A stretch of DNA of 64,000 bases from Alphaproteobacteria bacterium (GCA_964291675.2 OZ219865.1:288001-352000), one strand, 5' to 3'. Positions 1 to 59,819 are shown, counted from the first letter of the stretch. A program made the numbers and translations. The notes: generated from the letters alone by a model not told the origin.

Positions 1-1
1 G

Positions 2-370
2 GCCGACATCCGGGTGCTGGACTACGGCCCCGGGCAGCTCGCCGCCCTGCTCGACCGGGTGGGGTTCTACCGCCCGGCGCGGGTCAGCGCGGGCGCGCTG
101 CGCGGCCACGACCGCGACAGCCCGCAGATCGGCGTGCTGAACGTGATCGCCACCCATGCGAACACACCGGACGACACGGTGGGCCGGCTCGCCCGGCTGA
201 TGGCGTCGGGGCACGCGCGCCTCGCCGAACTGAACCCGCTGTTCGACGGTCTGGGCGCCCTGTTCGATCCGCTGCGCGAGGCGGGCGAGGCGGGGCTCGC
301 GATCGACGGCGTCCCCCTCCACCCCGGCGCCGCGGCTTCCTACCGCGCGCTCGGGCTGGTCGGGTCCTGA
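2..370 (+). CDS. TAXI-family TRAP transporter solute receptor, C-terminal part (truncated by window edge)
   Basis: C-terminal 'GVPLHPGAAASY' resembles TAXI termini, including the TAXI at 59820-60788. Confidence 0.7.
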   Translation, partial: ADIRVLDYGPGQLAALLDRVGFYRPARVSAGALRGHDRDSPQIGVLNVIATHANTPDDTVGRLARLMASGHARLAELNPLFDGLGALFDPLREAGEAGLAIDGVPLHPGAAASYRALGLVGS

Positions 371-1359
371 GCGCCGGCGAACTCGCGCACGAGGTCGAGC
401 GCCAGCGCCTTGTTCTCCGGGGTGCCGCTGATCTGCAGAATCGGCTCCTCGATCCCGGCATCGAGATAGCGGGCGAGGGACCTGCGGCAGTCGGAAGGGG
501 TGCCGCCGGCGCAGAACGCCTCGATCGCCTCGTCGGGGATCATCGCCGCCGCCTGGGCGAGGTCGCGGCGTCCGACCGCGTCCATGATCGCCGCGTGGTC
601 GATGGGGAGCCCCGAACTCGCGATGTTGTCGGCGTGGCCGGCGCTGCGGAACAGATAGGCGAGCTTGGTCTTCAGGTCGTCCACCGCCGCCCGGCCGTCG
701 GGCGATACCGAGAAGTAGATCAGGCTCGCCCGGCGGAGCGAGTGGCGGTCCCGTCCCGCCGCCGCCGCGCCCTCGTCGGCGAAGGCGAGGCAGCGCCGGG
801 TCGATTCGAGGGTGAGCCCGCCCGACAGCAGCACCCCGTCGGCGATCCGCCCGGACAGGCGCAGCACCTGCGGGCCGGTCGAGGCGACGTAGATCGGCAG
901 CGGCGCCGGCGGGGCGAAGTTCATGTAGGCGCCGTCGAGGCGGTAGGCCGGCCCGTCGCGCATCACCCGCTCGCCGGTCCAGAGCGCGCGGAGGTCGGCC
1001 ACCATGTCGCCGATGGCGGCGACCGGGCGCACCGGCTCGTGGCCCGATTCCTTGAGGTTGAGCAGATTGCCGACCGATACCGCGACGGCGACGCGCCCCG
1101 GCGCCAGCTCCGCCAGCGTCGCCAGCGCCATCGCGGTCGGCGTCGGGTGCCAGAGATAGGGGCTGATCGCGGTCGGCACCAGCCGCACCGTCTCCGTCGC
1201 CCCGGCGATCGCCGCGCAGGCGGTCACCGCCTCGCGCCAGCCCATGTGCTCGGCGACCCAGACGCTCGCGGCGCCCGCGGCCTCCGCGCCCCGGGCGAGG
1301 CGGATCATCTCGCGCGCGTCGTCGAATCCGTCGAAGACGACGCCCATCTCGACCGTCAT
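340..1359 (-). CDS. LLM-class (luciferase-like) flavin/F420-dependent oxidoreductase
   Basis: 'SVWVAEH', 'PIYVASTGPQVLRLSGRIADGVLL'; ATG at 1359 with GGAGGA RBS. Confidence 0.85.
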   Translation of the reverse strand: MTVEMGVVFDGFDDAREMIRLARGAEAAGAASVWVAEHMGWREAVTACAAIAGATETVRLVPTAISPYLWHPTPTAMALATLAELAPGRVAVAVSVGNLLNLKESGHEPVRPVAAIGDMVADLRALWTGERVMRDGPAYRLDGAYMNFAPPAPLPIYVASTGPQVLRLSGRIADGVLLSGGLTLESTRRCLAFADEGAAAAGRDRHSLRRASLIYFSVSPDGRAAVDDLKTKLAYLFRSAGHADNIASSGLPIDHAAIMDAVGRRDLAQAAAMIPDEAIEAFCAGGTPSDCRRSLARYLDAGIEEPILQISGTPENKALALDLVREFAGAQDPTSPSAR

Positions 1360-1436
1360 TGCTGTCCTCCGGCGCTCCACGCTTGATGGCGGCCGCCCCG
1401 CCTGTGATCCTGCCGCCGTAACGGAAGGGCGGGGCC

Positions 1437-1751
1437 ATGCTCTACATCATCTACCAGATCGACAAGCCCGGTTCGGAAGACATCCGGGCGCGAACCCGGG
1501 AAGACCACTTCGCCTATCTCGACGCGCATGAGGATATCCTGGTGCTCGGCGGCGCGCTGCTCGGCGAGGACGGCAGGACCCGCACCGGCAGCGTGCTGAT
1601 CGTCAACGTGCCCTCGCGCGAGGCGGCCGAGGCGTTCTCCAACGACGAGCCCTTCCGCAAGGCCGGCCTGTTCGAGCGGGTCGAGATCAACCGCATGCGC
1701 CGGGGGCAGTGGAACCCGGAGGCGGCGCCCAAGACCGCCGAGGGGAACTGA
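1437..1751 (+). CDS. YciI family protein
   Basis: 104 aa; 'R..HFAYL', 'GSVLIV', 'DEPFRKAGLF' YciI pattern. Confidence 0.85.
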   Translation: MLYIIYQIDKPGSEDIRARTREDHFAYLDAHEDILVLGGALLGEDGRTRTGSVLIVNVPSREAAEAFSNDEPFRKAGLFERVEINRMRRGQWNPEAAPKTAEGN

Positions 1752-1758
1752 GGCCGGG

Positions 1759-2517
1759 TCAGGCGGCGATCCCCTCGGGCAGCGGGTCGCGCTCGCCGAG
1801 CACCGCCGTGCGCCAGATCTCGTTCATGCAGGCCCAGCGCGTCTTGACCGCGACGGTGGCGATCTCGACCGCGCGGGCGGCCATCTCCTCGGTGCTGATC
1901 AGCCGCTCGACGAGCTGGATCTGGCGGCTCGAATGGTCGGCGTCGGCGATGTAGTGCTCGGCGAAGAACCCGATCGCCGGGTGGTCGATCTCCATCCCGT
2001 GGAACTTCCTGAAGGCGGGCAGGGTGCGTTCGCCGTTGATCGCCGGCTGCTGCCCCTCCTGGGTCGACTGCATGGCGACGATCACCGGAAACGCCTCGTC
2101 GCGCACCGTCGCGAGGTAGAAATAGGACCGCGCCCGCCAGGCCGGTAGCTGCTCGGTCGCGCGCACCTCGTCGTCGGTCATGCCGGCATGGCGGCAATAG
2201 CGGAAGATCAGCTCCATGTGGTCGTGCGGCGCGCGGTCCTCGCCCGGGCCGGCGACCAGCCCCTCCTCCTCGGCCAGGTTCTCCAGGATGAAGCGCCGCC
2301 CCTCGGGCGGCGCCTTGGCGTAGATCAGCCCGAAGCTCGGCAGGGCGCGGACGACATGCTGACAGTGCTGCGCCATCAGCTTTCCCATCGCCTCCAGCCC
2401 GACGCTCCCGTCGTGGAAGCCGAGATAGAACGGGTGGTCCTTGGTATGCCAGGTCTCGCGCAGGGCGACGATCTCGGCCGCCGTCCGCCTTCCGATCGGG
2501 TTCGCCGCGCCGTCCAT
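1759..2517 (-). CDS. Heme-oxygenase-like diiron enzyme (PqqC/CADD-like)
   Basis: 'HPFY', 'ENLAEEEG', 'HDHMEL', 'QEGQQP', 'FFAEHYIADADHS' metal-ligand pattern; RBS before ATG 2517. Confidence 0.75.
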   Translation of the reverse strand: MDGAANPIGRRTAAEIVALRETWHTKDHPFYLGFHDGSVGLEAMGKLMAQHCQHVVRALPSFGLIYAKAPPEGRRFILENLAEEEGLVAGPGEDRAPHDHMELIFRYCRHAGMTDDEVRATEQLPAWRARSYFYLATVRDEAFPVIVAMQSTQEGQQPAINGERTLPAFRKFHGMEIDHPAIGFFAEHYIADADHSSRQIQLVERLISTEEMAARAVEIATVAVKTRWACMNEIWRTAVLGERDPLPEGIAA

Positions 2518-2653
2518 ATTCTTCCTCCCGGGCCTCGTCCGCCGCCCAGCGTGATAGCCAACCGGGCGGGGCCGTTCAACCGGCCGCGGCTGGACAAAGC
2601 GGCCCCGATATGGGCGTCTAGCGCGCACCGGCAGCGACGGAGGCGGACAGGCG

Positions 2654-4105
2654 ATGAGCTATGACGGGCTGAGGCCCTATCTCCAGGTCCTGGAGCAGCG
2701 GGGCATGATGCGCTGGGTCGACAAGGAGGTCGACAAGGACTGGGAGATCTCGGCCGTGCTGCGGATGATCTTCCGCGCGATGTCGGAACAGAATCGCTAC
2801 GGCATCGGCTTCCGCAACATCAAGAACTATCCCGGCGGGCGCGTCGTCGCCGGCGTGGTGGCGTCCTCGCGCGAGATGATCGCCACCGCGATCGGCTGCG
2901 AGCCCGACTTCGCGGCCATCCACCGCAAGGTGATCGAGGGCATCGCCAACCCGATCGAGCCGGTGATCGTCGACGACGGACCGTGCAAGGAGGTCGTGGT
3001 GTCGGGCGGCGACGTGGATCTCAACGCGCTGCCCATCCCGGTATGGACGCCGGAGAAGGACGCGGGCCCCTATCTCACGCCCCTCTGGGTGACCAAGGAC
3101 CCGGACGACGGGCGGCGCAATATCGGCATCCGGCGCTGCCAGATAAAGGGCCGGGACAAGACCGGCATATTGTTCGGCGCGCCCGACCGCGGCGGCGCCA
3201 TCCACTGGGAGAAGTGGAAGGCCCGCGGCAGGAGCATGCCGGCGGCGATCTTCATCGGCGGCGACCCGGTGCAGTACGTGGTGGCGCCGGCGCGCTACGG
3301 CGCCGACGAGCTCGCGGTCGCCGGCGGCATCCGCGGCGAGGCGATCCCGATGGTGCGCTGCGAGACCGTCGATCTCGAAGTGCCGGCGCATGCCGAGATC
3401 GTCATCGAGGGCGAGGTGCTGACCGATTCGCTCGAACCCGAGGGCCCGTTCGGCGAGTTCACCGGCTACATGGCGGGCGGCCGCCACGCGCCGGTGTTCA
3501 AGGTCAACTGCATCACCCACCGCAAGGACCCCATCCTGCTCGGCATCATCAGCCAGCTCCCGCCGTCGGAGAGCAGCATGATCAAGCGCTCGCTGCTGGA
3601 GGCCGGGCTGAAGAAGCACCTCAGCGAGGATCTGCGCATCCCGGGCATCGCCGACGTGCACGCGCTGGAGGCCGGCGGCTGCACGGCGACGCTGTGGATC
3701 TCGCTGAAGAAGATGTATGCCGGGCATGTCGACCAGGCGGTGTTCGGCAGCTTCGGCCATATGGGGATGAGCTATTTCAAGTGGATCGTCGTCACCGACG
3801 ACGACATCGACATCGAGGACCCGTTCATGCGCGACTGGATCCTCGCCTGGCGGGTCCGCCCGGAGCATGACGTGCGGGTGATCGAGACCCCGGCGGCGGT
3901 CGAGCTCGACCCGTCCTCGTTCGGCCCCGACGCGCCCGAGGGCGGGCAGGCGCCGGGCGCCAAGGTGGTGATCGACGCCACCCGCAAATGGGACTATCCG
4001 GGGATCTCGCTGCCGCCGCTGGAGAAGCTGCGCGAGGTCGCGGCGGGCTGGGAGAGCTACGGCCTGCCGCCGCTCGAGGACCTCAAGCTGCCGCGCGGCG
4101 AGTAG
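2654..4105 (+). CDS. UbiD-family (prFMN-dependent) decarboxylase
   Basis: 'EGPFGEFTGY', 'NIGIRR', 'VVTDDDIDI', 'KVVIDAT'. Confidence 0.9.
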   Translation: MSYDGLRPYLQVLEQRGMMRWVDKEVDKDWEISAVLRMIFRAMSEQNRYGIGFRNIKNYPGGRVVAGVVASSREMIATAIGCEPDFAAIHRKVIEGIANPIEPVIVDDGPCKEVVVSGGDVDLNALPIPVWTPEKDAGPYLTPLWVTKDPDDGRRNIGIRRCQIKGRDKTGILFGAPDRGGAIHWEKWKARGRSMPAAIFIGGDPVQYVVAPARYGADELAVAGGIRGEAIPMVRCETVDLEVPAHAEIVIEGEVLTDSLEPEGPFGEFTGYMAGGRHAPVFKVNCITHRKDPILLGIISQLPPSESSMIKRSLLEAGLKKHLSEDLRIPGIADVHALEAGGCTATLWISLKKMYAGHVDQAVFGSFGHMGMSYFKWIVVTDDDIDIEDPFMRDWILAWRVRPEHDVRVIETPAAVELDPSSFGPDAPEGGQAPGAKVVIDATRKWDYPGISLPPLEKLREVAAGWESYGLPPLEDLKLPRGE

Positions 4106-4108
4106 CGG

Positions 4109-4888
4109 TCAGGGCGCCGGGTCGATCTCGCACCAGACGGGGGTGTGGTCGGACGCCTTGGGCCTGCCGCGCGGCTTGCGGTCGATGCCCGACGCGGACA
4201 GCCGGTCGGCGGCCTGCGGCGACAGCAGCAGGTGGTCGATCAAGAGGCCGAAATCCTTCTGCCAGGCGCCGCCCTGGTAGTCCCAGAAGCTGTAGGAATG
4301 CGGCGCGCGGTTGAAGGCGCGGAAGGCGTCGGTCAGCCCGAGATGGACCAACGCGCGGTAGCGCGAGCGCGACTCCGGCCGGCACAGCGCATCGCCGGCC
4401 CAGCCCTCGGGGTCGTAGCAGTCGCCGTCCGTCGGCACCACGTTGTAGTCGCCGCCCAGCACCAGCGCCTCCTCGTGGCGCAGCAGGTCGCCGACATGCG
4501 CCTTGAGCCGGTCCATCCAGCGCAGCTTGTAGTCGAACTTCTCGCCCGGCGCCGGATTGCCGTTGGGCAGGTAGATCGAAGCCACCCTGAGATCGCCGAC
4601 GAAGGCCTCGATATAGCGCGCCTGATCGTCCTCGGGGTCGCCCGGGAGGCCCGTGCGCACGTCCTCGATCGGCTGTCTGGCGAAGATGCCGACGCCGTTA
4701 AAATTCTTCTGCCCGCGGATCGCGACGTTGTAGCCCGCGTCCTCGATCGCCTCGCGCGGGAAGGTCTCGTCGGTCGCCTTGAGCTCCTGGGCGAGCACGA
4801 TGTCGGGCGAGAACTCGCCCAGCCATTCGAGCACGCGCGGCAGCCGGGCGCGGATCGAGTTGACGTTCCAGGTCGCGATCCGGGTCAT
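4109..4888 (-). CDS. xth: Exodeoxyribonuclease III
   Basis: 'IATWNVNSIRAR', 'QELK', 'YLPNG', 'GDYN', 'SDHTPV'; ATG overlaps erpA stop. Confidence 0.95.
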   Translation of the reverse strand: MTRIATWNVNSIRARLPRVLEWLGEFSPDIVLAQELKATDETFPREAIEDAGYNVAIRGQKNFNGVGIFARQPIEDVRTGLPGDPEDDQARYIEAFVGDLRVASIYLPNGNPAPGEKFDYKLRWMDRLKAHVGDLLRHEEALVLGGDYNVVPTDGDCYDPEGWAGDALCRPESRSRYRALVHLGLTDAFRAFNRAPHSYSFWDYQGGAWQKDFGLLIDHLLLSPQAADRLSASGIDRKPRGRPKASDHTPVWCEIDPAP

Positions 4889-40936: not shown

Positions 40937-41398
40937 GTGGCCGGAAGCGTCAACAAGGTCATTCTCGTCGGCAATCTCGGAGCCGATCCGGAGGTCCGTC
41001 ACACCAATGACGGCAACCCGATCGTCAACCTGCGTGTCGCCACCTCCGAGCGGTGGCGCGACCGCACCAGCGGCGAACGGCGCGAGCGCACCGAATGGCA
41101 TCGCGTCGTCATCTTCAACGACCGCCTCGGCGAGGTGGCGCAGAAATACCTGCACAAGGGCTCGAAGGTCTATCTGGAAGGCCAGCTCCAGACCCGCAAA
41201 TGGACCGGCCAGGACGGCCAGGAGCGCTACACCACCGAGGTCGTGCTGCAACGCTTCCGCGGCGAGCTCACCATGCTCGACAGCCGCGGCGAGGGCGGCG
41301 GCGGGTACGATGCGCCGGGCGGCGCGCCGGGCGGCGAAATCGACCGCGGCGGCCCGGCCCGGGGCGGCGCCGACCTGGACGACGAGATCCCGTTCTAG
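40937..41398 (+). CDS. ssb: Single-stranded DNA-binding protein
   Basis: '[15 protein letters not shown]', 'TEWHRV', C-terminal 'DDEIPF'. Confidence 0.97.
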
Positions 41399-53409: not shown

Positions 53410-53851
53410 AGTGGGTGCCCGGATCAAGTCCGGGCATGACGGGAGGAGGCATGGCGACGGGGCGGGCCGCACCCGGCTCTCCACGCTCTCTCACCGCCAC
53501 CCCCACCACGTCATGGCTGGCCCCCGGATCACAGTCCGGGGGTGATCCGGCCATCCATGCGGCCTCGCCGCATGCATGGCGGCCGGCAGGGAGGGGCGGT
53601 GGCGCCAGTGGGTGCCGGCCGGCCCCGGCCCCCCCACGTCATGCCCGGCCCCCGGATCAAGTCCGGGGGTGATCCGGGCACCCATGCGGCCTCGCGGCGC
53701 GCACGGCGACCCGGCGGGAGGGGCGGTGGCGCCAGTGGGTGCCCGGATCAAGTCCGGGCATGACGGGAGGGGAGGCATGGCGACCGGGCGGGCCGCGCCC
53801 AGCTTTTCCCATACCGCCAATGGATGCCCGGATCACCCCCGGACTTGATCC
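53410..53851. repeat. REP cluster (continues at 59612-59800 beyond the IS)
   Basis: Multiple GGATCAAGTCC-cored hairpins including hairpin-in-hairpin forms. Confidence 0.85.
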
Positions 53852-54028: not shown

Positions 54029-54547
54029 CTATGCGGCCTGCGGCGCCGCCAGCCGGTATCCCCAGGGGGAAACGGCGCGGGCGTGGTCGACCAGCTTGTC
54101 GACCAGAAGCGCGACGAAGAGCTTTCCGTACAGCCAGGCGCGGGCGCTGTCGTCGTCGCGCTTGGGCAGATGGCCGAGCCGGGCGAGCGACTTGAGGCGC
54201 TTGAAGACCAGCTCGACCTGCCAGCGCAGGCGGTACCATTCGAGAACCTCGCTTGCGCTGAAGCGCTGTTCGCAGAACGTGGTAAAGACGATGACGTAAT
54301 CGGCGAAGGCAAGGGTTGCGGGCTTGACCTCGCCGCCCTGGCGCCTGGCCTCGCGGCGCGCCCTCTTGCGCGCCCGCCGGGCGGCCTGGGCCGACTTGCG
54401 CACCGCGCAGACGCGCCCGTGCACCCCGCCCGCCGCCGCCGGCCAGCACCCCACGGCCCCGGCGCGGTCCAGCCCGGACAGCGCCGCAAGCAGATCGAAG
54501 CGCGCCCCGTCCGGGGTCCAGAGCGGCAACGCCCCGGTGTTCACCCG
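54029..54547 (-). pseudogene. IS4 transposase, C-terminal half (interrupted)
   Basis: YREK motif 'YRLRWQVELVFKRLKS'; joins the N-terminal half in frame at R-V-N-T. Confidence 0.9.
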
Positions 54548-54692
54548 TGAGCAGGCGCAGGCTTTCAGCGGGGATTGGGGGCTGATCCGCTTGGATTAAT
54601 CGAGGTTTTGGGGAAGGTGCCCCCCGGCGATCTTGCAAGAAGGCCGCCGGAGGGCTTGTCTCGGTGACAGCTACATCAACTGAGACGCCCCA

Positions 54693-55307
54693 ATGTCGCA
54701 CAAGCTGTTCCGTCACTCCATCCTCTGCAACGCCCGGGTTTGGGACTTTCTGAAGCAGGTCGACGCAGCCGAGGCGGAGGCCTGCCGTGCGGTGGGCTGT
54801 CCTCACTGCGGCGGGACGCTTCACAGCGCGGCCTACCCTCGCAAGCCGTACGGTCTGGCGGCGGATCTTCGGGACGATGTGCGGCGCTTCAGCCTGTGCT
54901 GTTCGGTGTGCAGGCGCCGGGTGCGTCCTGCCTCGGTGCGTTTCTTCGGTCGGAGGTTCTACGTCGGTGCGCTGTTCCTGCTGGTGAGCGCACTGGCGCT
55001 GACCGGCGGGGTGCGGTTGCAGACGATCGCGCGGCGCTGTGGGGTTCCGGTCTCGACGCTGAAGCGCTGGCGTCGCTGGTGGCTGGACGCCTTCCCGGCG
55101 ACCCCGGAGTGGGCGGCGAAGCGGGGCGAGCTGGCGACACCGGCCGGGGAAGCGCCTGTGCGCCGGCTGCTGCGCCTGATGCGGGGCCGGGGCCTGCGGG
55201 CGCGGCTGCTGCGGAGCCTGGTCTGGCTGATGCCGTGGACCGGTTCTTGCGCGCTCGGCGCCGGGCCGGCTTCGCCCGCAGAAAGCGTTTCTGTCATGAA
55301 CGGATAG
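54693..55307 (+). CDS. Zn-ribbon + HTH protein, transposon accessory
   Basis: 'CPHCGG', 'CCSVC', HTH-like 'LQTIARRCGVPVSTLKRW'. Confidence 0.7.
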   Translation: MSHKLFRHSILCNARVWDFLKQVDAAEAEACRAVGCPHCGGTLHSAAYPRKPYGLAADLRDDVRRFSLCCSVCRRRVRPASVRFFGRRFYVGALFLLVSALALTGGVRLQTIARRCGVPVSTLKRWRRWWLDAFPATPEWAAKRGELATPAGEAPVRRLLRLMRGRGLRARLLRSLVWLMPWTGSCALGAGPASPAESVSVMNG

Positions 55308-55356
55308 GGGCTCTTACACCGGCATCTCCCCAACAGGGCGAGGGAGGGATGCCGGG

Positions 55357-56811
55357 ATGGACAGCAACGACGGGAGCGAGCGTCGCGACCGGTGGGCGCG
55401 GCTGCGCTTCGCGGTGGTCGGGCCGCTTCTGGCCTCGCCGCCGCCGAAGGGGAAGCTGCGGGCCGAGCTGGAGCGGCTGGCCGGACGCGAGTGGGAACAT
55501 CCGTCCGGCAAGGGGCCGGTGCGCTTCTCGGCCTCCACGATCGAGCGCTGGTACTACCAGGCGCGGGCGCAGGAGCAGGACCCGGTCAAGGCGCTTCGCC
55601 GAAAGCCACGGGCCGACATCGGCCGCGAACGGGCGATATCGGCGGCACTGATCGAGGTGTTGCGCGATCAGTACCGGGCGCATCCGTCGTGGTCGGCACA
55701 GCTGCACCATGAGAACCTGGCGGCGCTGGTCGCGGCCGATCCGGCGCTCGGCCCGATGCCGTCCTATGCGACGCTCACCCGGGCGATGCGGGCTCGCGGG
55801 CTGGTGCGCAAGCGCCGGCGCAAGTGGCACGAGAGCGAGGCGCGGCCGCCTGTCCAGGCCCGCGAGGTACTGAGCTACGAGGTCACGCGCAGCCACGCCC
55901 TGTGGCACAGCGATATGCATACCGCCAAGTGTCGTGTGCTGACGGCCTCGGGCGAGTGGAAGACGCCGATCCTTCTGGGCTTTCTCGACGACCACTCCCG
56001 GCTCGGCTGCCACCTTCAGTGGTATCTCGCCGAGACCGCAGAGGTCTTCGTCCATGGGCTGTGCCAGGCGTTGATGAAGCGGGGCCTGCCGCGGTCCCTG
56101 CTGACCGACAACGGCTCGGCGATGACCGCCGGCGAGGTCGAGGAAGGGTTGCTCCGGCTCGGCATCGCGGGGGTCACGACGCTCGCGTACAGCCCGCATC
56201 AAAATGGAAAGATCGAGACTTTCTGGGGCACGGTCGAATCACGCCTGATGGCCCAGCTCGAAGGCGTCGACGCGCTCACCCTGAAGATGCTCAACGACGC
56301 CACCGTCGCCTGGCTGGAGCAGGACTATCACCGCCGCGAGCACCGCGAACTCGGCATGTCGCCGCATCGGCGCCTCGCCGGGAGCGTCGACGCATCGCGG
56401 CCCTGCCCCGGCGCGGCCGAGCTCAAGGCGGCCTTCCGCATCACGAGGAAGCGCATGCTCCGGCGCTCGGACGGCACCGTCTCGGTCGAGAACATCCGCT
56501 ACCAGATACCGCCGCCGTGGCGCCACCTGCGCGAGGCCTGGGTCCGCTATGCGCGCTGGGACCTCAGCAGCGTCGATCTGGTCGACGGCCGGGGCGGCGA
56601 ACGGCTGTGCACGCTCTATCCCCTCGACAAGCGCGGCAACGCCGATGGTGTGCGCCGTCCCATCGGCCCCGGCGACGACGATGGCAAGGGCGGCGAGGGG
56701 ACAGGCGGACTGCCGCCGCTGCTCAAGAGCATGCTCGACGCGCAGGCTGCAACCGGCCTGCCGCCGGCATGGCTTGCCTTCGATGACACCCGCGATGATG
56801 GAGAACGCTGA
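55357..56811 (+). CDS. DDE transposase (rve core, Mu/TnsB-like C-terminus)
   Basis: 'LWHSD', 'LDDHSR', 'LTDNGS', 'NGKIETF'; N-terminal 'STIERW...RKPRAD'. Confidence 0.92.
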   Translation: MDSNDGSERRDRWARLRFAVVGPLLASPPPKGKLRAELERLAGREWEHPSGKGPVRFSASTIERWYYQARAQEQDPVKALRRKPRADIGRERAISAALIEVLRDQYRAHPSWSAQLHHENLAALVAADPALGPMPSYATLTRAMRARGLVRKRRRKWHESEARPPVQAREVLSYEVTRSHALWHSDMHTAKCRVLTASGEWKTPILLGFLDDHSRLGCHLQWYLAETAEVFVHGLCQALMKRGLPRSLLTDNGSAMTAGEVEEGLLRLGIAGVTTLAYSPHQNGKIETFWGTVESRLMAQLEGVDALTLKMLNDATVAWLEQDYHRREHRELGMSPHRRLAGSVDASRPCPGAAELKAAFRITRKRMLRRSDGTVSVENIRYQIPPPWRHLREAWVRYARWDLSSVDLVDGRGGERLCTLYPLDKRGNADGVRRPIGPGDDDGKGGEGTGGLPPLLKSMLDAQAATGLPPAWLAFDDTRDDGER

Positions 56812-57644
56812 TGAACCGCGAACACCTCACCCTGTACGGGCTCAAGTGGAACCCGTTCGCCCCTGACCTCCCGGTCGACAGCCTGATGGCGACTGGCGCC
56901 GTCGACAGCTTCTGCCTCAGGATCGAACGCCATCTCGTGCGCCACGGCGGCTTCGCACTGATCGCCGGAGAGCCCGGAACCGGAAAGAGCGTTGCCCTGC
57001 GCCTGCTCGCCCACCGGCTCGGGCGATGCGACGGGCTCAGGGTCGCCGCCATCACCCACCCGTCCTCGAGACTGTCGGACTTCTACCGCGAGATCGGCGA
57101 GCTGTTTGGCGTCGACCTGCTGTACAACAATCGCTGGGCCAGCTTCAAAAACCTGCGCCAGCGCTGGCTCGCGCATCTCGATGACACCCGCATGCGCCCG
57201 GTGTTGCTCATCGACGAGGCCCAGGAACTGCTGCCCTCGGTGTTCTCCGAGATCCGCCTGCTCGCGTCGACCGACTTCGACTCGCGCGCCATCCTCTCCG
57301 TCGTCTTCGCCGGTGACAACCGCCTGCTCGACCGGCTCCGCCAGCCCGACCTGCAGCCCATCGCCTCGCGTATCCGACAGCGTCTGCTGATGACCCGGAC
57401 CGAGGACGCCGACCTGGCCGGCCTGCTCGACCATCTGCTCGAAGAGGCCGGCAATCCGGCGCTGATGACCGCCGGGCTCAGGGACACCCTCGTCACCCAT
57501 GCCGCAGGAAACCCCAGGGCACTCACCGTCATGGCTGATGCCGTGCTCGCAGCCGGTGCCGAGAAGGATCGCGAGGTGCTCGACGAGAAGCTCTTCATCG
57601 AGACCCTCGGCGAGGCACCGCCAGCCAGGCGGGCCCGGCGATGA
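56811..57644 (+). CDS. ExeA/TnsC-like AAA+ ATPase
   Basis: 'LYGLKWNPF', 'GEPGTGKS', 'LLIDEAQ', 'GNPR'; TGATG coupling. Confidence 0.9.
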   Translation: MNREHLTLYGLKWNPFAPDLPVDSLMATGAVDSFCLRIERHLVRHGGFALIAGEPGTGKSVALRLLAHRLGRCDGLRVAAITHPSSRLSDFYREIGELFGVDLLYNNRWASFKNLRQRWLAHLDDTRMRPVLLIDEAQELLPSVFSEIRLLASTDFDSRAILSVVFAGDNRLLDRLRQPDLQPIASRIRQRLLMTRTEDADLAGLLDHLLEEAGNPALMTAGLRDTLVTHAAGNPRALTVMADAVLAAGAEKDREVLDEKLFIETLGEAPPARRARR

Positions 57645-58630
57645 CCGGCTTCCCGACACGGCCACCGGCCGAACTCGAGGAGCGGCCGCGGGAGCGGCAG
57701 TGGCTGGTCGATGCCCTGTGGAGCGAACAGGGGGTCGGCATCGTCGGCGGCGAGCCCAAGTGCGGCAAGTCCTTCCTCGCGCTGGACCTCGCCGTCGCGG
57801 TGGCTGCAGGAGTGCCCTGCCTGCGCCACTTCCGCCCCGCGGCAAGCGGCACCGTGTTGCTCTTCGCCGCCGAGGACGCCGGTCACATCGTGCGCGACCG
57901 CCTCAAGGGCATCGCCCGGGCCGCCGGCGCCGACTTCGAGGCCCTCGACATCGCCGTCATCGACGTGCCCACGCTCCGCCTCGATCATCGCCTCGACCGG
58001 CAGCGGCTGCTGGAGACCGTCGAACGGATCGGACCGCGCCTCCTCGTCCTCGATCCCCTGGTCCGCCTGCATGGCGTCGACGAGAACGCGGTTGCGGAAG
58101 TCGCTCCCATCCTCGGCTTCCTGCGCGACCTGCAGCGCCGCTTCGGGACCGCTGTGCTGCTCGTCCACCACGCTCGCAAGAGTGGCGCCAGCCGCCCCGG
58201 CCAGGCGCTGCGCGGCAGCAGCGAGCTGCATGCCTGGGGCGACAGCAATCTCTACCTGCGCCGGCGCGACGGGCAGATCGTCATGACCGCCGAGCATCGC
58301 GCCGCACCCGGCCTCAACAATATCGAGATCGAGCTTGCCGATGACGGCGAAGGACCAGCGCTGCAGCTCCGGCGGACAGGACCTCACCAGGCTCCGCCGC
58401 AGCCGGACAGCGCCGAACAGCGGATCGCCCAGGTGCTCGCGACAGCCGAATCCCCACTCGTGCAGTCCGAGATCCGAAAACGCGCCGGGGTACGCAACGC
58501 GACTGTCTCCGCGGCACTGCACGGGCTTGTGCGCGAGGGACGGGTCGAGCGCGGGACGGGAGGTCGCTACCGCTTCCTCGGAACCGCGGCGAACCAAGCC
58601 GACAACCCGACGGACAGCCACAACCCGTAG
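57641..58630 (+). CDS. RecA-fold AAA_25/RepA-like helicase with C-terminal winged HTH
   Basis: 'GEPKCGKS', 'AAED', 'LVLDP', 'LVHHARK', 'LRGSS'; ATGA coupling. Confidence 0.82.
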   Translation: MTGFPTRPPAELEERPRERQWLVDALWSEQGVGIVGGEPKCGKSFLALDLAVAVAAGVPCLRHFRPAASGTVLLFAAEDAGHIVRDRLKGIARAAGADFEALDIAVIDVPTLRLDHRLDRQRLLETVERIGPRLLVLDPLVRLHGVDENAVAEVAPILGFLRDLQRRFGTAVLLVHHARKSGASRPGQALRGSSELHAWGDSNLYLRRRDGQIVMTAEHRAAPGLNNIEIELADDGEGPALQLRRTGPHQAPPQPDSAEQRIAQVLATAESPLVQSEIRKRAGVRNATVSAALHGLVREGRVERGTGGRYRFLGTAANQADNPTDSHNP

Positions 58631-58645
58631 GCGAAGCAGCCCCTC

Positions 58646-58699
58646 TTCCCGTTCCCGTTCCGGCGAACCCTTAAGCGTTGCAGGGAACGGGAACGGGAA
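58646..58699. repeat. Perfect 16-bp inverted repeat built from hexamer iterations
   Basis: TTCCCGTTCCCGTTCC-N22-GGAACGGGAACGGGAA. Confidence 0.85.
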
Positions 58700-58956
58700 C
58701 ACCAGCGCACAATGCCCCACGAAACTGCCTGAAGCGATCGGCCAATGGCCGAAAGCTCTGCTTACGGCCATGGCAGCCCTCTGGCGCGGGGACGGCGGCG
58801 GGTCACCCGAAGGGCCGTAGCGGAGCGAAGGAGCCGCGAAGCGGCTTGAAGCGCCGACGGCCTCGCGACACTCCCCGCCCGGCCTTCCTGCAAACGGCAG
58901 ACGATCCCCATCGAATAACGCGAAATCCGCACCATCAAACAACGTGCGCGCGCTCA

Positions 58957-59540
58957 ACCCGCACCGCGATGCGACCGCCCGCCGCCGCCACATGGCCAAT
59001 CCCGGCCGCCGTCGCATACCCCCGGTCGGCCAGGATGTGGTCGCCCGCGCGCACCGGAAACCGCGCCAGATACTCCGCGCTGCCCGCCCCGCGCGTCGGC
59101 GTCACCGCGAAGTAATCGCAGCGCAGCGAGGACAGGCACAGGCTGTAATGCACCCGCCACACAGAGCCCGTCCGCCCCGGCTCGCGCACCGTGGTGGCGT
59201 CGAACGCGCGCACCCGCAAGCCCGAACCCGGTCGCGAACCCGGCGGGCGCGCCAGGCCGCGCTCGCGAAACAGCGCAACGCACAGCCCGTGCAGCCAGTC
59301 CGACGATTTGCGAAGCCGCTTGAGCAGCGCAACGTCCGACAGATCCGCCAGACCCGCCTGGCGCGCCCGAACCGCCGTCTCGCGCAGCGAATGCCCGCAG
59401 CCCAGATGCAGCAGCAGAACCCGCAGCGCCGCCTGTGCCGACTTGTCCTTGCGCAGACCCTTCAACGCCCCGCTGGAACGGCCCAAATCCTCCCAGCCGG
59501 CCGGCAGAAACGACCGCAGAACCGCCCAGTCCTCGTCCAT
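58957..59540 (-). pseudogene. IS4 transposase, N-terminal half (interrupted)
   Basis: 'SLRE', 'LSDVALLKRL', 'FDAT', 'ADRGY' as in IS186-type enzymes. Confidence 0.9.
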
Positions 59541-59819
59541 CGCAGGTCTCCGAGCCCAAACACTCGGGAACCCTAGCCAAAATGACCGATCGAAACAAGT
59601 TAGCGCTTATGGGACTTGATCCGGGGGCCGCGCATGACGGGAGGAGGCATGGCGATGGGGCGGGCCGCGCCCGGCTCTCCACGCTCTCTCACCGCCACCC
59701 CCACCACGTCATGGCCGGACTTGATCCGGCCATCCATGCGGCGGCTCCGCCTGCACGGCGGTCCCACGAGAGGGGCGGCGCCGCCGGTGGATGCCCGGAT
59801 CGCCCCCCGGCCCCGGCGG

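Follow-up and report, generated by a model that had tools for sequence, protein, structure and literature searches.

The transposon and its boundaries

The window analysed here, a stretch of 64,000 nucleotides from an Alphaproteobacteria bacterium (GCA_964291675.2 OZ219865.1:288001-352000), contains a compact transposon of four genes, orf1 to orf4, which encode a zinc-ribbon/helix-turn-helix (HTH) protein, a DDE transposase, an ATPase and a predicted helicase of the RepA type. The features are collected in Table 1, with positions counted from the first letter of the window. An earlier note, made from the sequence alone, had placed exact boundaries where the element splits an IS4-type transposase gene in frame, and had described TG...CA ends, a 5-bp duplication ACCCG and short imperfect terminal inverted repeats. 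All of this was confirmed in the sequence. When the element is removed together with one ACCCG, a single open IS4-type transposase frame is obtained on the minus strand. The empty site is found in an uninterrupted second IS4-type copy in the same genome, which reads ...gttcACCCGcaccgcg... with a single ACCCG. The terminal inverted repeats agree at 11 of their first 14 bases. The four open reading frames (ORFs) have the same orientation and fill the element, and there are no passenger genes.

Other copies, which the earlier note had proposed to look for, were sought by a DNA search of the assembly to which the window belongs (4.8 Mb, two contigs). Bases 1-4409 of the element are matched at 100% identity in four places. 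These four identical copies have unrelated flanks, and each is bordered by its own direct repeat: CCGGA, CCGGT, ACCCG and CTGT, the last being of 4 bp. The stretch from 54548 to 58956 is a real transposon and was recently active. A census of 76 full copies in five genomes gave duplications of 5 bp (n = 43), 4 bp (n = 25), 6 bp (n = 2) and 3 bp (n = 1), and none in five cases. The length of the element ranges from 4383 to 4429 bp among relatives, and its ends in four relative genomes read TGAG(C/A)GGGCGCA...GC(G/A)C(G/A)CTCA.

Two copies in the same metagenome-assembled genome (MAG), L013 and L024, show no matching duplications and have swapped flanks: CGACC on the left and ACGG on the right in one, ACGG on the left and CGACC on the right in the other. 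Recombination between copies and intramolecular replicative transposition both fit this arrangement. The assembly of the window (G000) has a further, partial relative of 77% identity at a contig end (G000:C1:13-2889, L005); it looks decayed, with a transposase frame split in three.

Table 1. Features of the transposon and of the insertion site, in window coordinates
Feature	Position	Strand	Remarks
Whole transposon	54548..58956	+	4409 bp, TG...CA ends
Target-site duplication, left copy	54543..54547		ACCCG, 5 bp; single ACCCG in the empty site
Target-site duplication, right copy	58957..58961		ACCCG
Terminal inverted repeat, left	54548..54561	+	TGAGCAGGCGCAGG
Terminal inverted repeat, right	58943..58956	+	...CGTGCGCGCGCTCA
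IS4-type transposase gene, 3' part	54029..54547	-	split by the insertion
IS4-type transposase gene, 5' part	58957..59540	-	split by the insertion
Imperfect palindrome/hairpin	54619..54655	+	upstream of orf1; conserved centre CTTGCAAGAAG; contains the left motif of the earlier note
orf1	54693..55307	+	204 amino acids; zinc ribbon (C36, C39, C69/C70, C73) and HTH_23
orf2	55357..56811	+	484 amino acids; DDE transposase (D186, D251, E287), N-terminal HTH
orf3	56811..57644	+	277 amino acids; AAA_22 (ExeA/GspA-like) ATPase
orf4	57641..58630	+	329 amino acids; RepA(RSF1010)-type RecA-fold NTPase (~1-245) and C-terminal winged helix (~257-312)
Inverted repeat, 27 nt	58646..58699		just 3' of orf4; GGGAACGGGAACGGGAA arms, 81% complementary, no spacer
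Conserved non-coding block	58700..58900		G+C-rich, between orf4 and the right end

Genes orf1 to orf3

Profile and structure searches agree with the protein classes proposed earlier for the four co-oriented genes, namely a zinc/HTH protein, a DDE transposase, an ATPase and a helicase with a winged helix, and the last three genes are coupled. The overlap is of 1 base between orf2 and orf3 and of 4 bases (ATGA) between orf3 and orf4, with the same abutment in relatives.

The orf1 protein matches Pfam HTH_23 (E 2.5e-6), and its HTH domain is preceded by a zinc ribbon of the form CxxC...CCxxC, the cysteines of which are invariant in 33 sequences. Comparison of its AlphaFold model (predicted local distance difference test, pLDDT, 68) with the PDB by Foldseek gave nothing below E 0.4, and for this reason a likeness to TniQ could not be shown. 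The DUF6431 protein that takes this place in a relative from Cupriavidus necator gave a weak hhalign match (E 2e-4, probability 44%). orf1 is probably a DNA-binding accessory protein or regulator.

The transposase encoded by orf2 matches Pfam rve (E 2.7e-6; 28.0 bits, under the cut-off of 32.6) and HTH_32. Its best NCBIfam profiles are those of IS481 (114 bits, cut-off 224), IS3 and IS21 (40.1 bits, cut-off 160), all of them sub-threshold; PHROG 310, 'transposase', is matched with E 2e-38. The catalytic triad forms a DD(35)E arrangement with spacings of 65 and 36. Across 47 diverse relatives, D186 never varies and D251 and E287 hardly do. The AAA_22 gene lies directly downstream, and the earlier note was right to see a DDE transposase paired with an AAA+ ATPase, as in Mu, Tn7, Tn5053 and IS21.

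This ATPase, orf3, matches AAA_22 with 76.8 bits (E 2.4e-21), TniB with 16.5 bits, below the cut-off of 22.4, and PHROG 296, 'DNA transposition protein', with E 2.6e-20; ShTnsC was matched only with E 0.13. The Walker A residues G56-G58-K59-S60 and the pair D135-E136 are invariant. orf3 is the counterpart of the Tn6049 gene 'gspA' and of regulators of the MuB/TnsC/TniB/IstB type. PADLOC returned one weak P-loop match for it. A prediction of the complex of orf3 with orf4 scored 0.00, which is evidence neither for nor against an interaction.

orf4 encodes a predicted RepA-type helicase

The orf4 protein matches AAA_25 with 130 bits (E 1e-37), which by sequence places it among the RecA-fold proteins of the RepA/DnaB type. 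The matches of its winged helix are weak and of the GntR/MarR/IclR type. The sole sequence match in the PDB is the hexameric helicase RepA of RSF1010 (1g8y, E 3e-11). The model of orf4 (pLDDT 77) superimposes on 1g8y_A with a TM-score of 0.71 and a root-mean-square deviation (rmsd) of 2.8 Å over 243 columns; the fold also resembles those of RAD51, RadA, KaiC and DnaB. In 35 sequences, down to 42% identity, the invariant residues are K43 (Walker A), E78/D79, D138 (Walker B), H176, H177, K180, Q188 and R191. The invariant motifs of the nucleoside triphosphatase (NTPase) include HH-x2-K (176-180) and R191-G-S-S. Presumably, these motifs correspond to the Walker A, Walker B, sensor histidine and arginine finger residues of RepA.

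RepA of RSF1010 (1g8y, 1nlf, 1olo) thus shares with orf4 a homologous NTPase core, with Walker A and B, HHxxK and RGSS. The two proteins are only about 20-23% identical. Unlike RepA, orf4 has a C-terminal winged helix and a conserved N-terminal W-x4-LW segment, and its setting is a transposon, whereas RepA of RSF1010 sits by RepB/RepC and oriV. The PHROG matches of orf4 that carry a function are primase/helicase families. No defence match was returned by PADLOC, and a tblastn search with orf4 at E 1e-15 found no match in 72,556 plasmid records.

The ratio of nonsynonymous to synonymous substitution rates (dN/dS) is 0.15-0.49 for orf4 over eight pairs, 0.25-0.36 for orf2 and 0.16-0.46 for orf3. 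This indicates that orf4 is under purifying selection, in a range like that of orf2 and orf3. On these features, orf4 is read as a catalytically intact NTPase of the RepA type and a predicted helicase. The gene lies within the duplication-bounded ends, and the statement of the earlier note that a RepA-type helicase gene is part of the mobile unit is upheld by the homology to RepA in both sequence and fold.

Relationship to Tn6049 and other transposons

A tblastn search of the same plasmid records with orf2 matched 125 of them, at best with 49-52% identity. The best matches include pMOL28, pMOL30 and the chromid of Cupriavidus metallidurans CH34, and pHS87a of Pseudomonas aeruginosa. The pMOL30 locus is annotated as a 'transposase' of 181 amino acids, an 'IS481 family transposase' of 479, an 'AAA family ATPase' of 277 and a 'hypothetical protein' of 71, and the plan is the same on plasmid pBPHYT01 of Paraburkholderia phytofirmans PsJN. 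Over residues 8-433, orf2 is 52% identical to the transposase of Tn6049. In an excerpt of the CH34 genome paper, Tn6049 is presented as a novel transposon of 3.5 kb with 12 copies in CH34, each with an ATPase gene 'gspA' (PMC2864759). A passage on pHS87a gives it 12-bp imperfect inverted repeats, TGTGCaTaAGCA, which start with TG, and 4-bp direct repeats (PMC4739549). Among the relatives collected here, L151 starts with exactly this repeat and encodes an identical 71-residue protein.

The window element and Tn6049 have in common the gene order, TG...CA ends, short imperfect repeats, duplications of 4 bp (here 4-5 bp), multiple copies and the lack of passengers. They differ in size and in the fourth gene, which encodes an acidic protein of 71 residues in the 3.5-kb Tn6049 and the 329-residue helicase with its winged helix in the window. 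Their terminal sequences differ as well (TGTGCATAAGCA in Tn6049, TGAGCAGGCGCA in the window). The transposase and its position in the tree, the gene order, the TG ends and the 4-bp repeats are therefore those of Tn6049; the fourth ORF of about 70 residues is not present. The small proteins have no significant likeness to orf4 (best E 0.007 over 15 residues). The element very probably belongs to the Tn6049 family, with its DDE transposase and AAA+ ATPase, as an autonomous transposon free of passenger genes. The earlier note knew of no described member with this helicase as a core gene and had named a match to a described family as grounds for abandoning the claim. As the backbone is that of the named family Tn6049, the claim was abandoned for the backbone. 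Judged from the sequences, what is known is the Tn6049 backbone, and what is new is a RepA-type helicase as the fourth gene. No description of the helicase-bearing form was found in the papers open to search, which include neither supplementary files nor the 2009 article on Tn6049, nor the ISfinder and TnCentral registers.

An rve transposase, an overlapping AAA+ gene, TG..CA ends and 4-5-bp duplications are also found in Mu (MuA/MuB), Tn552, Tn5053/Tn402 (TniA/TniB), Tn7 (TnsB/TnsC) and IS21 (IstA/IstB). To our knowledge, none of the families Mu, Tn552, Tn5053, Tn7 and IS21 carries a RepA-type helicase as a standard gene. The element differs from Tn7-like transposons in that the four proteins have no Pfam or NCBIfam match to TnsA or TniQ/TnsD (PF06527 not hit). 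By gene content and profiles, it differs from Tn5053/Tn402 and Tn552 in having no recombinase gene and no res site, and in its sub-threshold TniB score. As for IS21, the transpos_IS21 profile is well short of its cut-off (40.1 against 160 bits) and orf3 has no IstB_IS21 match. IS481 provides the best NCBIfam profile for orf2, over the HTH and rve region, and the PGAP label of the Tn6049 protein. The score is half the cut-off, however, and the element has four genes and belongs to a family in which an ATPase partner is always present, whereas IS481 elements are single-gene insertion sequences.

More distant plasmid relatives, at 25-32% identity, keep the plan: those of C. necator and Sporosarcina consist of a DDE transposase, an ATPase and a small ORF, and that of Mycobacterium intracellulare of a DDE transposase and an ATPase, with no small ORF annotated. 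Two published elements were considered and set aside. The one treated in PMC9679502 is a different element, and the telomeric Tn7-like elements with the TtrA helicase, as outlined in part of bioRxiv 10.1101/2024.11.13.623437, are unrelated.

Distribution of the helicase form

One genome per prokaryote species was scanned with orf2. This gave 80 loci with 72-88% transposase identity in about ten assemblies, several long-read MAGs of Alphaproteobacteria having from 10 to more than 30 loci each. The order orf1-orf2-orf3-orf4 is found at all 80 loci; in L061 the second half of the orf4 gene is displaced by about 3 kb, and in L087 the contig edge cuts the locus. A second scan, with an alignment of 12 sequences as the query, reached identities of 51-66% and added 60 loci. 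By their record titles, these belong to Acidobacteriota, Planctomycetota, Verrucomicrobiota, Nitrospinota, Actinomycetota, Myxococcota and several classes of Pseudomonadota, and they include long contigs (Isosphaeraceae, 890 kb; Terriglobia, 402 kb). orf4 follows orf3 at 52 of the 60, and at 26 of the 33 in the tier of 51-54% identity. In the other seven of this tier, the contig ends 233-365 bases from orf3 (L127, L132, L135, L140), the element is truncated inside orf3 (L126), or a different fourth gene is present (L119, L120). The end of orf3 and the start of orf4 coincide among relatives. In an even sample of the phylum of the window, 15 of 401 genomes have a match to the transposase family at E 1e-25 or better. 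A megablast search of plasmids with the element gave no match, nor did a tblastn search of 50,697 phage records with orf2 at E 1e-5.

A transposase tree of 58 rows was built with four to five more distant transposase/ATPase elements as the outgroup. The window, Tn6049 and all relatives of 51-88% identity form a clade of 53 rows with an SH-aLRT support of 100%. The helicase forms (44 rows) are spread throughout this clade, and the small-ORF forms make up one nested clade of five rows (98%). In a helicase tree of 39 rows, transposase clades I (15/15) and II (18/18) are both recovered with 99% support, with some reshuffling inside. The helicase form is widespread in MAGs, and one large branch of the family has kept the gene for long, under selection, although it is not indispensable. 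The check proposed in the earlier note, whether the helicase stays between the ATPase gene and the right end, came out positive for the close loci and for much of the 51-54% tier, where it is no sporadic cargo, but not for Tn6049 and some others, which differ.

A variable fourth position

A small fourth protein of about 65-71 residues is found in Tn6049, PsJN, L119 and C. necator. Homology (E 1e-5 to 1e-16) links those of PsJN, L119 and C. necator with one another, while the search with that of Tn6049 matched none of them. Each of the four is acidic, with ...NDF, ...DEPF, ...SPPF or ...DLPF at its end. These tails, described as ...D-x-P-F for PsJN, L119 and C. necator, resemble the canonical acidic tail of the host single-stranded DNA-binding protein (SSB), which is encoded at 40937-41398 in the window and ends in ...DLDDEIPF. 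PriA and further replisome proteins dock at the tail of SSB. SSB-family matches above the Pfam cut-off number nine in the genome of the window (the one in the window and eight others), which is unusually many.

In a locus labelled Polyangiaceae (L120:4491-4775), the fourth position is occupied by a protein of 94 residues that matches Bac_DnaA_C, the DnaA domain IV (40.4 bits, cut-off 31.5). In MAGs of Magnetococcales, a much more divergent transposase and ATPase are followed by a helicase near orf4 (score 372-374 with the hidden Markov model of the family), and then by a DnaG-type primase with a CHC2 zinc finger and a Toprim domain, between TG..CA inverted ends about 5.5 kb apart. Three such loci were found, and the longer contig cuts off the right end; in L182:1-5495 and L183:5930-11206, a protein of 251 residues with no Pfam match is also encoded, and the ATPase is of the AAA_22 type.

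Non-coding features and surroundings

In the left non-coding region, a block covering roughly bases 70-120 of the element does not differ between five lineages, although their proteins share only 74-87% identity. The arms of the palindrome upstream of orf1 vary between lineages, yet remain largely complementary. RNAalifold lends weak support to covariation: of 6 pairs, 5 show double changes, at an energy of -1.9. The earlier note had also pointed to a subterminal inverted motif with 13 of 14 identical bases (54633-54646 and 58880-58893). The motif is present, but not above chance, as 174 inverted pairs of at least 11 nt exist in the 4.7 kb that include the element, the best being of 20 nt at 95%. 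Its left copy falls within the block shared by the five lineages, and relatives do not keep its right copy. The motif was dropped as a candidate transposase site.

The inverted repeat downstream of orf4 is kept in part among relatives. A scan of the element for promoters and terminators found none, and no terminator-like site at the position of this repeat. The adjacent G+C-rich block is conserved in the window and in lineages A-D, and nhmmer finds it at 3 of 42 further loci (L102, L029, L028). Its folding signal is modest on the plus strand (z-score -2.5), and the minus strand scores -0.5. The Rfam search of the element gave no family for this block and only a chance miRNA match (E 0.79). The block was rejected as a universal origin, since most relatives are without it.

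On either side of the split IS4-type element, the word depth is 4050 (53548-53760) and 1713 (59540-59750), against about 50-400 elsewhere. Contigs from sequencing data link 53765-53784 straight to 59646-59707, outside the transposon, and ORF translations near the two flanks contain the same peptide in several places. The flanks look like a repeat of the repetitive extragenic palindrome (REP) or miniature inverted-repeat transposable element (MITE) kind into which the IS4-type element inserted, so that the locus would comprise three nested layers.

Proposed role of the helicase

The passage of a completed strand-transfer complex to the replication machinery is known in detail only for Mu, where it needs ClpX and restart by the host PriA-DnaB-DnaC. 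The fourth position of the present family may hold a module that couples transposition to replication, a proposal rated somewhat below an even chance. Taken together, the identity of the element and such a role for its helicase are judged about as probable as their opposite. By analogy with Mu, Tn552/Tn5053 and IS21, orf2 would cut the 3' ends at the terminal CA and join them to the target with a stagger of 4-5 bp. orf3 would act as an ATP-dependent regulator of target DNA, and orf1 as the zinc/HTH DNA-binding accessory protein. The four ORFs that fill the element include neither a TnsA-like second-strand nuclease nor a resolvase, and strand transfer would therefore leave a forked intermediate that needs replication. 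The orf4 helicase would be placed at the element end or at the fork by its winged helix or by orf2 and orf3. Replication, whether target-primed as in Mu or of the copy-out kind as in IS3/IS481, would then lean less on helicase loading or restart by the host. The helicase would require no loader from the host; RepA of RSF1010 works without DnaB/DnaC. The Magnetococcales branch would supply both helicase and primase, and Tn6049-like forms may recruit host factors. The main support for replication coupling is that one position has three replication-flavoured occupants.

A series of observations weighs against this role. Tn6049, with its 12 copies, and its relatives have no helicase. In a MAG of Paracoccaceae, orf4 is split at the same point in all 7-8 copies by a RIT-like element. 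This 3.7-kb element has three tandem tyrosine recombinases (329, 307 and 519 residues, all Phage_integrase) and is flanked by inverted repeats of about 100 nt (L103:8757-12478, also L104 and L111; inverted in L105 and L118). As it is found in both orientations, it probably inverts. A profile search of the whole Paracoccaceae genome for an intact orf4 gave half-length matches only. Three composites of 8082 bp are 100% identical and occupy separate sites, each with a duplication of its own (GCGGC, GCCTT and GCCC). Given these fresh duplications, the composite moved while the assembled genome had no intact helicase gene, unless the assembly missed one. The small protein also occurs in outgroup lineages, for which reason the helicase is probably a later replacement and not ancestral. 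The likeness of the small proteins to the SSB tail spans 3-5 residues and is a lead only. Phage relatives of orf4 are named 'RecA-like DNA recombinase', and its fold is also like those of RAD51, RadA and KaiC. Replicative transposition in the absence of a resolvase would leave cointegrates to host recombination. Finally, the relatives were sampled by their likeness to the window, and the bins of short MAG contigs may be wrong.

The view of the earlier note that the helicase is a core gene is thus retained in part. The gene is selected and its tree recovers the transposase clades, but Tn6049, L119, L120 and the split copies that moved speak against a universal core gene. These data limit the claim to a helicase that helps and is not required. 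We infer that it improves transposition or widens the host range, without being strictly needed. Either the small protein is ancestral, as is probable, and the helicase replaced it later, or recombination has exchanged the fourth position.

Alternative explanations

orf4 could instead be a remodelling or regulatory ATPase, a RecA-fold ring or filament with a winged helix, that attaches to the element ends or the strand-transfer complex and dismantles it, picks targets or controls expression of the transposase. ClpX takes the Mu complex apart, and TnsE and TniQ choose the targets of Tn7. The Foldseek E-values of orf4 with RAD51, RadA and KaiC are about equal to that with RepA, its phage relatives bear a recombinase name, and its winged helix has GntR/MarR/IclR-type matches, all of which would suit such a function. 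So would the presence of pure DNA-binding or small adaptor proteins in the same position of other elements, and the fact that the helicase is dispensable for insertion. Nevertheless, the only solved relative by sequence is the RepA helicase, which also gives the best target-normalised TM-score (0.71), and the PHROG matches with a function are primase/helicase families. Moreover, the sister lineage pairs the same helicase with a DnaG-type primase, which points to priming and unwinding and not to regulation. This explanation is considered unlikely.

Less likely again is an extrachromosomal phase, in which an excised or copied-out circle would be replicated by orf4 in the manner of a plasmid, with the winged helix as the origin binder. 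Members of the IS481 and IS3 families move through circles, and the transposase resembles these families at the profile level. The RSF1010-like helicase, joined by a primase in the Magnetococcales form, and the conserved non-coding block and inverted repeat beside orf4 are also in keeping with a circle. Replication of an excised form had been suggested in the earlier note, and circle junctions were sought in Logan contigs. Two DNA runs contain the element, the sampled words being present to 88% and 86%. In neither of them is the right end joined to the left end by a contig, and unitigs stop exactly at 54548 and 58956; this is weak evidence, because contigs drop rare forms. Contigs of a sponge metatranscriptome cover 17 of 30 bins at 95-99+% likeness, which does not establish transcription of the window element, and a Hi-C run of raw reads contained one read. 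The small-share sponge and coral-reef metagenomes were left out as evidence on habitat. Neither an initiator nor an iteron array was seen in the element, the right-hand block is missing from most relatives, and the plasmid records have no orf4 match at E 1e-15.

That the helicase is passenger cargo which helps the host or counters defences, unrelated to movement of the element, is very unlikely. In its favour, the fourth gene varies within the family and insertion does not require the helicase. Against it, the ATGA overlap with the ATPase gene suggests translational coupling, both main clades of the transposase reappear in the helicase tree, and orf4 is under purifying selection as strong as that on orf2 and orf3; PADLOC gives no defence match, and the element carries nothing else.

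Implications

The replication-coupling role may be extended to the family as a whole. Elements of the Tn6049 type would then be minimal replicative DDE transposons with an interchangeable position for replisome coupling, for which there would be four solutions; this wider proposal is regarded as doubtful. In the first solution, the small acidic protein would mimic the C-terminus of SSB with its ...D-x-P-F tail, and borrow the restart primosome of the host. The others would be a DNA binder of the DnaA-domain-IV type, an own RepA-type helicase, and a helicase with a DnaG-type primase. If true, the forms with a helicase would be the first DDE transposons of bacteria to bring their own replicative helicase or primosome, and their presence in MAGs of many phyla, with 20-30 or more copies per genome, would be explained.

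The genes of the family are annotated merely as 'IS481 family transposase', 'AAA family ATPase' and 'hypothetical'. Some long-read MAGs contain dozens of copies, and assemblies break into element-sized contigs of about 4.3 kb. The family constitutes a natural series of four-gene elements, with no helicase, with a helicase, or with a helicase and a primase. Since the elements differ almost only in the gene at the fourth position, the question of how strand transfer is handed over to replication can be addressed with small constructs. The helicase form hints at how such elements link insertion to the copying of DNA.

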